Source of the DNA: Planctomycetota bacterium
GTDB taxonomy: Bacteria > Planctomycetota > SZUA-567 > H5-PLA8
Length of the DNA stretch: 64,000 bases
Direction: 5' to 3'
Assembly: GCA_037129555.1 (NCBI GenBank)
Contig: JBAXUS010000004.1
Location: 19,726-83,725, forward strand
The position numbers and the translations under genes were made by a program. The notes below the pieces were generated by a model. That model was not told where the DNA came from and searched no databases. It saw only the letters and a program-made list of their open reading frames with translations. Positions within the stretch are counted from its first letter, which is position 1; every line of letters starts with the position of its first letter. Positions 12,016 to 13,641 of this stretch are shown piece by piece.

Positions 12016-13641
12016 ATGCCCCTGGTTTCATTTCAAAACGAGTCCGTCATTGATGAATCCGATGACACCTTGACGCTCCTGCAGATTTCGCAGAAGCACG
12101 GCATTCCCCACATGCATGTTTGCGGTGGCATGGCACGCTGCTCGACATGCCGAGTCATGGTGCTTGAACATCCAGAAAATCTGTCGCCTCGAAATACCGC
12201 TGAAAAGAATCTCGCGACGCGCCTCGGTTTCGAAGACAACATCCGCCTCGCGTGTCAATGTCAAGTCACCGGCCCCGTCACCGTCCGCCGCCTCACGCTC
12301 GACGATCAGGACGCTGGGCTCTGCATGTCCGGCGACCAGCGCACCACCGGACGCGAAGCTAAAATCGCGGTCCTTTTCAGCGACATCCGAGGCTTCACTA
12401 CCTTCTCTGAAACATCGCTGCCCTACGACACGATCCACATCCTCAACCGCTACTTTTATCAGATGGGCGAAGCCGTTTTGCATAACGAAGGTTACATCGA
12501 TAAATACATGGGCGACGGCCTGATGGCGCTCTTTGGATTGAACTGCGACAACGCCGAAACCAACTGCCGCAACGCCGTCAACGCCGGTCTGCAAATGCTC
12601 ACGGAACTTGAAGGCTTCAACGACTACATGAAGCGCAACTTCGGACGCGAATTCAAGATCGGAATCGGGATTCATTTCGGCGAACTCATCATCGGCGAAA
12701 TGGGCCACCCCAGCCGCCGCTCGATCACGGTCATCGGCGACACGGTCAACATGGCCAGCCGTATCGAATCCGCCACGAAAGAAGCCGGCGCACCGATCCT
12801 TATCTCCGATGCCGTTCGCGACAGTTTGCGCGGACGCGTCGATATTGGTCGATCGTTCACCCAGGTGTTGAAAGGCAAATCCGGCTCGTACTCGCTCCAC
12901 GAAGTCCTCAATTTGCGCGAGCAAACGGTGGTCATGACACGCACCGGGATGATGCGAAATTGGATCGCAAGTTCCCTGCGCTGCGTGGTCACGCTGCGCA
13001 GCGCACCGCTCTTTTTGCGCGCCGCGTTCCACGATGCCGGGACGTATGATTCGGTCACGAACACGGGCGGATGCAGCGGCACGTTGCATCTCCCCGAAGT
13101 TTATTCGCGCCCGGAAAACGCCGGTCTGGAAATCGTCGTCAACTTGCTCATGCCGATCAAAAAGCATTTCGAAGGTGCCTCGTGGGCGGACTTGTTCATC
13201 GTCGCCGGATCCGTCGCGGTCAAGACGTTGGGCGGTCCCGATATTCCGGTCGCCCTGGGACGCAAGGACGCAAAGGACCAAGTCCCGCAGCCCGGTGTGA
13301 TGGACTTGGAGCATTACGACATCAAGCGCTTGAAAGAGCGCTTCCTGCGCATGGGCCTGACGATCCGCGACATGGTCGCGCTCTCCGGAGCTCACACCGT
13401 CGGCCACAATCGCGGTGCGCCATTCACGTACGATTGGTACAAATTCAACAACAGCTATTTCCGCCAACTACTCCAAGGCGCAGAAAGCTCCGAGCACATG
13501 CTCGGCACCGACAGAGCCCTCGCGCACGATCCGGAATGTTTCGAGTGGGTCAAGAAATACGCGCTGGACGAAGCGATGTTCTTTGCGGATTTCTCAGCGG
13601 CGTATCAGAAGATGTCGAAGCTGGGGACGAATTTGAAATAG
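12016..13641 (+). CDS. Tri-domain fusion: 2Fe-2S ferredoxin domain + class III adenylate/guanylate cyclase (CHD) + class I (ascorbate-peroxidase-like) heme peroxidase
   Basis: aa 1-95: Cys pattern HVCGGMARCSTC...LACQC (C-x5-C-x2-C-x33-C) is plant-type Fer2-like. aa ~115-300: IAVLFSDIRGFTTFSE, YMGDGLMALFG and GDTVNMASRIES are the CHD metal-Asp and Asn/Arg motifs. aa ~310-541: RAAFHDAGTYD (distal Arg/His), ALSGAHTVGH (proximal His) and C-terminal KYALDEAMFFADFSAAYQKMSKLG (compare APX [24 protein letters not shown]). ATG with upstream GAGGA. Confidence 0.8.
   Translation: MPLVSFQNESVIDESDDTLTLLQISQKHGIPHMHVCGGMARCSTCRVMVLEHPENLSPRNTAEKNLATRLGFEDNIRLACQCQVTGPVTVRRLTLDDQDAGLCMSGDQRTTGREAKIAVLFSDIRGFTTFSETSLPYDTIHILNRYFYQMGEAVLHNEGYIDKYMGDGLMALFGLNCDNAETNCRNAVNAGLQMLTELEGFNDYMKRNFGREFKIGIGIHFGELIIGEMGHPSRRSITVIGDTVNMASRIESATKEAGAPILISDAVRDSLRGRVDIGRSFTQVLKGKSGSYSLHEVLNLREQTVVMTRTGMMRNWIASSLRCVVTLRSAPLFLRAAFHDAGTYDSVTNTGGCSGTLHLPEVYSRPENAGLEIVVNLLMPIKKHFEGASWADLFIVAGSVAVKTLGGPDIPVALGRKDAKDQVPQPGVMDLEHYDIKRLKERFLRMGLTIRDMVALSGAHTVGHNRGAPFTYDWYKFNNSYFRQLLQGAESSEHMLGTDRALAHDPECFEWVKKYALDEAMFFADFSAAYQKMSKLGTNLK

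Follow-up and report, generated by a model that had tools for sequence, protein, structure and literature searches.

What does a protein do that joins a ferredoxin, a nucleotide cyclase and a heme peroxidase in one chain, and is such a chain real? The question is raised by an open reading frame (ORF) at positions 12016..13641 (+) of a 64,000-nucleotide stretch of contig JBAXUS010000004.1 from a Planctomycetota bacterium, the whole of which is referred to here as the window. The ORF was originally predicted, from the letters of the DNA, to encode a [2Fe-2S] ferredoxin (Fer2), a class III adenylate/guanylate cyclase and an ascorbate-peroxidase-like heme peroxidase. We find that the ferredoxin-cyclase-peroxidase fusion is real, functional and old. 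Its ferredoxin and cyclase (Fer2-cyclase) form the conserved core of a family in which at least three swappable redox modules, this peroxidase, a globin and an FNR-type reductase, alternate at the C-terminus, or there is no module at all. Redox- or H2O2-linked synthesis of cyclic nucleoside monophosphates (cNMPs) is the most reasonable function for the window protein, which is quite probably a redox- or peroxide-responsive adenylate cyclase.

A complete gene for a three-domain protein

The gene is complete, running from an ATG start through 541 amino acids (aa) to a stop codon at 13639-13641, and the ORF list and translation contain zero internal stops and zero frameshifts. The reading frame is uninterrupted through three intact domains, as predicted, and the Pfam families PF00111, PF00211 and PF00141 follow one another in the anticipated order, all three exceeding their gathering cut-offs. 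The AlphaFold2 (AF2) model of the protein has a mean predicted local distance difference test score (pLDDT) of 90.3 and a predicted template modelling score (pTM) of 0.62. An identical protein (P0001) is held by NCBI as 'MAG: peroxidase family protein [Planctomycetota bacterium]', encoded on an 85.8-kb contig of a metagenome-assembled genome (MAG). An assembly artefact or frameshift as the source of the fusion, a danger to which the original prediction had itself pointed, is ruled out by the continuous ORF, the identical NCBI entry and the presence of the same architecture in complete genomes, among them complete Leptospira chromosomes. A sequence check of the 541-aa translation found neither a signal peptide nor a transmembrane segment, and the lack of a signal peptide points to a cytoplasmic heme protein.

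Conservation was assessed with homologs from a search that covered 5.8 billion proteins and listed 120 matches; the resulting alignment comprises 117 full-length members. Across this alignment, as in the window sequence, the catalytic and ligand residues of all three domains are kept, which upholds the claim made for the window protein.

The ferredoxin domain (aa 1-95; 12016..12300, +) is matched by PF00111 at aa 11-85 (E 1.4e-8). Its ligands, C36-X5-C42-X2-C45-X34-C80, have the spacing of the adrenodoxin/ISC-Fdx type, and the four Cys are kept in 116-117 of the 117 homologs. The region also matches the NCBIfam model TIGR02007 (fdx_isc; E 1e-8) and nqrF models, both under the equivalog cut-offs, while its best relatives of solved structure are E. 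coli Fdx, adrenodoxin homologs, Etp1 and FDX2 (phmmer against PDB, E 6e-6 to 1e-4). The domain is modelled with a pLDDT of 84-95. We predict an adrenodoxin/ISC-type [2Fe-2S] ferredoxin, presumably loaded with its cluster; ferredoxins of this type pass electrons to heme enzymes. It is followed by a short linker (aa 96-113; 12301..12354, +), which in the AF2 model forms a helix at 97-104 and has a pLDDT of 62 for aa 101-110.

The class III nucleotidyl cyclase catalytic domain (aa 114-300; 12355..12915, +; PF00211 at aa 114-279, E 8e-23) has both metal Asp residues (D123 and D167), the substrate-specifying K163 and T238, and the transition-state pair N245 and R249. The motifs that had been quoted for it, FSDIRGF (D123), MGDGLMA (D167) and GDTVNMASRIES (N245, R249), were all found. 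D123, K163 and D167 occur in 117/117 homologs, N245 in 115/117 and R249 in 116/117; the position of T238, which we take to align with the Asp of mammalian C2 'YDIWGNTVN', is Thr in 106 and Ser in 11. The window protein has all six canonical residues intact, as do 21 of the 24 peroxidase-type relatives sampled. The pair of Lys and Thr is the class IIIb adenylate-cyclase signature in the classification of Linder and Schultz. The nearest cyclase structures are all of class IIIb, namely CyaC (S. platensis), Cya2, CyaB (P. aeruginosa) and photoactivated adenylate cyclases (PACs), at 31-32% identity, and the model superposes on CyaC, Cya2 and CyaB with Foldseek TM scores of 0.87-0.91. From Lys163 and Thr238 the domain is predicted to be a class IIIb adenylate cyclase that uses ATP, so that the earlier adenylate/guanylate cyclase call stands for class III and the intact residues, and its generic substrate label probably does not. 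A homodimer with two active sites is predicted.

Class IIIb cyclases such as CyaC, CyaB, bPAC/OaPAC and mammalian soluble adenylyl cyclase (sAC) share with the window protein the Lys/Thr pair, the two metal Asp and the Asn/Arg pair. They differ from it in their regulatory domains: the window protein has a [2Fe-2S] ferredoxin at its N-terminus and a heme peroxidase at its C-terminus, neither of which was found described as a regulatory domain of any characterised cyclase in the literature searched.

Only about eight residues separate the cyclase from the peroxidase in the AF2 model. The peroxidase domain (aa 306-541; 12931..13638, +; PF00141 at aa 328-516, E 2.4e-37) has its best matches in soybean and pea cytosolic ascorbate peroxidase (APX; E 3e-44, 40-42% identity over the whole APX chain), with cytochrome c peroxidase (CcP; E 3e-29) and KatG matching far worse. 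The model superposes on soybean APX over 239/249 columns, with a root-mean-square deviation of 1.9 Å and a TM score of 0.87-0.88 (Foldseek), and the whole APX fold is therefore present. On the distal side, APX Arg38 and His42 correspond to R335 and H339, and on the proximal side His163 and Asp208 correspond to H460 and D499; the four are conserved in 112 (R335), 116 (H339), 114 (H460) and 116 (D499) of the 117 homologs. The peroxidase motifs of the original prediction are likewise all in place: RAAFHDAGT (R335, H339), ALSGAHTVGH (H460) and FFADFSAAYQKMSKLG. The domain is predicted to be a class I heme peroxidase and to load heme.

Cytosolic APX resembles this domain in its fold, in its distal and proximal residues and in having neither a signal peptide nor a disulfide pattern. 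Unlike cytosolic APX, the window peroxidase is bacterial, shares its chain with a cyclase and a ferredoxin, and lacks the hallmark Trp residues of class I: APX W41 is replaced by F338 and APX W179 (CcP W191) by F470, giving class II/III-like residues on a class I scaffold. These positions are mostly Phe or Tyr among the homologs (Phe in 83 and Tyr in 34 of the 117 homologs at F338; Phe in 92, Met in 10 and Tyr in 8 at F470). In APX, the Arg172 that binds ascorbate sits at the gamma-heme edge, on a loop that is shorter in the window protein by about six residues. The alignment is ambiguous in this region, where R466 is variable among homologs (Asn 38, Asp 17, Arg 11) and position 464 is often basic (Arg 44, Lys 37, His 9). 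With the loop shortened and without a conserved Arg that could be assigned to it, ascorbate is unlikely as the substrate. The original prediction had mentioned neither the Phe substitutions nor the shorter loop. The predicted APX-like fold is thus borne out by PF00141 and by the Foldseek superposition, whereas the description as an ascorbate peroxidase proper probably does not apply.

A representative search, made without taxonomy, matched the peroxidase domain to eukaryotic fusions and to APX proteins of eukaryote type, which are 40-48% identical to it. The closest relatives outside the family include the eukaryotic fusions P0224, P0254 (Nolandella and others), P0202 and P0155 (Closterium), which are of AhpC/TSA-peroxidase, uricase-peroxidase and AAA_25/ChlI/Lon_C-type ATPase plus peroxidase types.

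Distribution, conservation and selection

How widespread is this combination, and are all of its parts maintained? The 120 matches listed are 42-100% identical to the window protein and essentially all combine its three Pfam domains, and the architecture occurs in at least 117 other clusters at 90% identity. The three-domain form was found in Planctomycetota (Phycisphaerales, Tepidisphaeraceae), Leptospirales (cultured Leptospira with complete genomes), Gemmatimonadota and Myxococcota. The possibility that it is confined to the source lineage, for which a database check of the architecture had been suggested, is contradicted by this spread over several phyla. Databases name members of the family 'peroxidase family protein' or 'adenylate cyclase', and a three-domain protein in UniProt, A0A1D7UYM7, is named only 'adenylate cyclase'. 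The architecture is already deposited in NCBI and UniProt, but only as unannotated entries.

The window gene was compared with an 83%-identical ortholog in locus L081 by the Nei-Gojobori method. The ratio of nonsynonymous to synonymous substitution rates (dN/dS) is 0.126 for the whole gene and, by domain, 0.131 (Fer2), 0.134 (cyclase) and 0.115 (peroxidase). Purifying selection acts equally on the three domains, and because dN/dS is equally low in each, all three parts are maintained.

Orthologs from the pathogenic group (P1) of Leptospira have the proximal His replaced by Arg ('SGARTIG') and the distal Arg by Lys ('LKLVYH'), with the Fer2 Cys and the cyclase residues intact. Both substitutions are present in all the P1 members sampled, namely alexanderi, weilii, noguchii, gomenensis, tipperaryensis and WS92.C1 (sources L004, L012, L068, L075, with the match at 6001-7611, and P0118-P0120). 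The canonical peroxidase residues persist in L. semungkisensis and in other Leptospiraceae. To judge from its residues, the P1 module looks like a heme-ligand-degenerate 'pseudo-peroxidase' kept under selection.

A modular family with a Fer2-cyclase core

Which part of the protein defines the family? We surveyed GTDB with one genome per species, which yielded 576 stretches that encode relatives, and analysed the best 80 loci. The Fer2-cyclase unit is present in 80/80 of these and the peroxidase in only 10. Fer2 and the peroxidase had been presented as two equal additions to a cyclase; the comparison instead shows a Fer2-cyclase core to which a peroxidase can be attached or exchanged. The four cluster-binding Cys are invariant in 92/92 core sequences, irrespective of the C-terminal module.

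Among the best 80 of the 576 loci the commonest form is a two-domain Fer2-cyclase with no partner module. It accounts for about 46 of the 92 core sequences sampled, is about 300 aa long and at most 57% identical to the window core, and occurs in Zetaproteobacteria/Mariprofundus, Blastocatellia, Anaerolineae, Hymenobacter, Roseivirga and others. Next to the 10 loci with a C-terminal peroxidase, for which cytosolic APX is the closest solved structure, six loci (L011, L014, L015, L016, L023 and L025) have an FNR-type C-terminal module, a FAD_binding_6/NAD_binding_1 reductase closest to NqrF, MmoC, BenC and flavohemoglobin reductase. In seven further loci, which include L040, L044, L054, L056 and L067, the module is a PF00042 globin closest to Hell's Gate globin, Vitreoscilla hemoglobin and flavohemoglobin (FHb). 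Some loci, such as L030 and L034, have an N-terminal DUF2769 extension. No description of FNR, globin or DUF2769 fusions to the Fer2-cyclase core was found in the literature searched. In a rough neighbour-joining (NJ) tree of the core, which is without support values, peroxidase-type, FNR-type and module-less proteins are mixed in one clade and the globin types lie in another. This suggests that the C-terminal module was gained, lost or exchanged repeatedly.

Several variants were observed within the family. Many of the two-domain proteins (loci such as L052-L080) have Lys163 replaced by Asp or Asn and Thr238 by Ala, Ser or Val in the 92-sequence core alignment, and these are candidate non-canonical specificity pairs. 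In Mariprofundus sp. KV and Roseivirga, at unrelated loci, a two-domain Fer2-cyclase gene is followed 1-1.4 kb downstream by a full-length KatG gene (L062 7908-10070, -; L078 8315-10528, -); such a pair could correspond to the fusion in 'split' form, or be a coincidence. In Thermoanaerobaculia, proteins of about 780 aa have the order Pkinase-Fer2-cyclase-globin (L051 3247-5598; L057 4969-7317), with degenerate cyclase residues, NRGTNT and EREAAQ, against the canonical DKDTNR. This suggests that the cyclase fold may act there as a signal transducer to the Ser/Thr kinase.

Such degenerate cyclases bear on whether the window protein signals at all. It could be a bifunctional enzyme, a ferredoxin-dependent peroxidase that detoxifies H2O2, in which the cyclase provides dimerisation or runs constitutively. 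The degenerate residues of L051 and L057 show that the cyclase fold can be a scaffold or transducer, and Fer2 and the peroxidase could make a self-contained detoxifying pair. We nevertheless regard this explanation as very improbable, since the six cyclase residues are intact in the window protein and most of its sampled peroxidase-type relatives, and the cyclase is under the same purifying selection as the other domains. Furthermore, no ferredoxin-recharging reductase is fused or conserved nearby, and sustained detoxification seems unlikely.

A proposed model for redox control of the cyclase

How might the modules act on the cyclase? The invariant feature of the family is a cluster beside a cyclase, and a model in which the cluster gates the cyclase is therefore the most economical. 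The protein would be a homodimeric class IIIb adenylate cyclase that is set by the redox state of its N-terminal adrenodoxin-type [2Fe-2S] cluster, with the C-terminal APX-like peroxidase as the input module. H2O2 would oxidise the heme to Compound I or II, electrons from the reduced cluster, in the same chain or elsewhere in the dimer, would re-reduce the heme, and the oxidised cluster would then alter the rate of cyclic AMP (cAMP) synthesis. In sister proteins with the same core, an FHb-type globin would serve as an O2/NO input and an NqrF/MmoC-type FNR as an NAD(P)H/reductant input. What the data show is which domains the protein has and how they fold, that its cofactor and catalytic residues are kept, that purifying selection acts on it and that the family is modular; we infer that the cofactors are loaded, that electrons pass between heme and cluster, which way the cyclase responds, and that the protein dimerises.

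Peroxidase, globin and FNR are all natural electron partners of ferredoxins, and the redox state of the cluster is therefore the simplest signal common to the three forms. In their native settings, the reductase modules of NqrF, MmoC, BenC and flavohemoglobin deliver electrons to an Fe-S or heme centre that is fused to them or belongs to a partner. The Fer2-FNR reductases (NqrF, MmoC, BenC) and flavohemoglobin have the same FAD/NAD module or FHb-type globin that the sister proteins carry; they have no cyclase between the redox partners, whereas the window family has one and the window protein has a peroxidase instead. The model is also supported by the distal Arg and His for heterolytic H2O2 cleavage, which are kept in 112-116 of the 117 homologs, and by the KatG genes that adjoin two-domain Fer2-cyclase genes at two unrelated loci (L062, L078). 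Neither a conserved Arg172 nor any other conserved site for a small-molecule reductant is identifiable, and the ferredoxin in cis is then the obvious candidate to supply electrons.

Several points weigh against this model. The modelled linkers, with a pLDDT of about 60, and the pTM of 0.62 do not fix the heme close to the cluster. The cyclase lies between Fer2 and the peroxidase in the sequence, and for electrons to pass, the domains would have to pack in a particular way or be arranged in trans within the dimer. The NJ tree behind module swapping lacks support values. Many Fer2-cyclase proteins are without a C-terminal module, so that the cluster can evidently sense something on its own. Lastly, the P1 Leptospira have lost the proximal His (to Arg) and the distal Arg (to Lys) and have kept Fer2 and cyclase intact; their module must act without canonical heme catalysis, which argues for a role that is at least partly structural or allosteric. 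The specific electron relay, in which the heme drains the in-cis [2Fe-2S] cluster and the state of the cluster sets the cyclase, is thus offered as a plausible but tentative mechanism.

The retention of the module without its proximal His in P1 Leptospira would suit a direct heme-ligand sensor, in which the peroxidase-fold heme binds H2O2, NO, O2 or CO and regulates the adjacent cyclase allosterically. Fer2 would keep the heme in the right oxidation state, or act as an independent second sensor. Heme-sensor-coupled nucleotide cyclases are an established class, as in the H-NOX domain of soluble guanylate cyclase and the globin-coupled adenylate cyclase HemAC-Lm of Leishmania. A globin fills the same C-terminal position in sister proteins, and a linker of only about eight residues joins the peroxidase to the cyclase. 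Such a sensor would however leave unexplained the FNR-type siblings, which are without a ligand-binding heme. The sibling globins, moreover, belong to the enzymatic FHb/single-domain lineage (PF00042) and not to the protoglobin-type sensor globins, and the full catalytic set of distal Arg/His and proximal His-Asp is what peroxide turnover needs, not ligand binding. We consider this explanation unlikely.

The module-less proteins, which are the commonest form and in which the cluster must be able to sense alone, would also be accommodated by a sensor of cluster integrity, responding to oxidative or NO-induced cluster loss or to iron availability, as in the sensor FNR, IscR and aconitase/IRP1. 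The peroxidase would then guard the cluster locally, removing H2O2 and adjusting the threshold of cluster damage. The invariance of the four Cys and the KatG genes next to such proteins in L062 and L078 are in keeping with this idea. However, adrenodoxin-type [2Fe-2S] clusters are generally stable electron carriers, not labile sensors. A guard would explain the FNR and globin alternatives less well than electron exchange does, and a peroxidase without a reductant cannot scavenge catalytically. A sensor of cluster integrity therefore also seems improbable to us, and we prefer control of the cyclase by the redox state of the cluster.

Gene neighbourhood

Is the protein encoded together with conserved partners? 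A Hanks-type kinase ORF (9929..11872, +; Pkinase E 4e-50) ends 143 bp before the start codon, on the same strand, as the original prediction had noted. The kinase is present, but it is not a conserved neighbour: RidA/YjgF stands upstream of the 83%-identical L081 ortholog, where the downstream region is otherwise syntenic (a ParB_N-like gene and a 639-aa ORF), and 0/10 of the three-domain GTDB loci have a kinase within 6 kb. A functional link to the Hanks kinase as a conserved trait is ruled out by these two results. Within the family, a kinase fusion is found only in the two globin-type relatives with a degenerate cyclase (L051, L057).

All-against-all clustering of neighbours in the 80 loci revealed no recurrent operon partner such as a cAMP receptor, phosphodiesterase or reductase, and the largest neighbour cluster consists of generic ABC-F ATPases. 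The genes nearby in the window are housekeeping genes, and the Leptospira loci have lineage-specific signalling neighbours (a response regulator (RR) with GGDEF and EAL domains, RR-GGDEF-EAL; an RR; and a methyl-accepting chemotaxis protein, MCP). The gene behaves as a stand-alone unit. A promoter-like site (TTTAAA, 16 nt, TATGAT; 11932..11959, +), a pattern match from a consensus scan, lies in the 143-bp gap after the kinase gene and suggests that the gene may have its own promoter. By its sequence pattern, GAGGAT at 12003-12008 (+) is a plausible ribosome-binding site.

A hairpin at 12977-13005 (+), at the start of the peroxidase domain, has a perfect 13-bp GC-rich stem followed by a T-rich tract (dG -26.7 kcal/mol, z -2.3). 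It was considered as a conserved attenuator at the cyclase/peroxidase boundary and rejected: the hairpin is identical in L081, yet this 29-nt identical run is no longer than other identical runs in the gene (30 and 27 nt) and so gives no evidence of selection on the RNA.

Downstream, a 177-aa DUF6932 gene and an ORF of 95 aa occupy 13656-14488 (+) of the window, starting 15 bp past the stop codon. Their GC content is 0.46-0.51, against 0.55-0.60 around them, and they are absent from the syntenic L081 locus; the pair is probably a small inserted two-gene cassette. Elsewhere in the window, a 2016-aa ORF (3576-9626, -) has a pseudopilin-like N-terminal hydrophobic segment and a Pro-rich stretch, and no Pfam match. 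A gene for type II secretion system (T2SS) protein F is located at 26414-27697 (-). The 2016-aa ORF may encode a giant planctomycete protein that is secreted or associated with pili.

Relation to known systems and biological meaning

Sensor-coupled class III cyclases are known, and what is new here is the type of input, within a larger uncharacterised modular family. The original prediction knew of no description of a cyclase fused to an intact class I peroxidase, and this agrees with our reading: no description of a fusion of a cyclase with a ferredoxin, or of a cyclase with a peroxidase, was found in the literature searched, in which the coverage of subscription journals is thin.

The heme-sensor cyclases mentioned above resemble the window protein in combining a heme domain and a class III cyclase in one polypeptide, where an oxidant or gas signal would become a cNMP signal. 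They use a ligand-binding sensor fold, whereas the window protein uses a catalytic peroxidase fold that is C-terminal to the cyclase. In contrast to them, the window family always has a second redox cofactor, the predicted Fe-S cluster.

Peroxidases are known to signal H2O2 in yeast, where Ccp1 acts on Skn7 and the thiol peroxidase Gpx3/Orp1 relays oxidation to Yap1, and SoxR is a [2Fe-2S] redox switch. As proposed for the window protein, Ccp1 and Gpx3 are H2O2 receptors that pass oxidising equivalents to a signalling partner, and in SoxR the oxidation state of a [2Fe-2S] cluster gates the output. Ccp1, Gpx3 and SoxR act on transcription factors, in trans, whereas in the window protein the receptor, the relay and the second-messenger output would be one polypeptide. 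That this is the first heme-peroxidase-based second-messenger sensor, a class I peroxidase serving as the H2O2 receptor in a hitherto unrecognised, phylum-spanning 'Fe-S-gated' cyclase family with plug-in inputs, is possible, and we state it with more doubt than confidence.

For the evolution of peroxidases, the family places monofunctional APX-like class I domains with class II/III-type Phe substitutions in several bacterial phyla. Pathogenic Leptospira, in which the heme ligand is lost, offer a natural experiment that may show what the module does apart from catalysis. The window protein is small, soluble and, with a predicted heme Soret band and a predicted Fe-S electron paramagnetic resonance (EPR) signal, spectroscopically rich, which makes the hypothesis directly testable. 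If it is true, heme peroxidases would have a signalling role, and a modular family of Fe-S-gated cyclases could be compared side by side in its peroxidase, globin, FNR and module-less forms. Bacteria would then have a direct route from H2O2 or redox poise to cAMP, distinct from the thiol- and metal-based transcription factors OxyR, PerR and SoxR.

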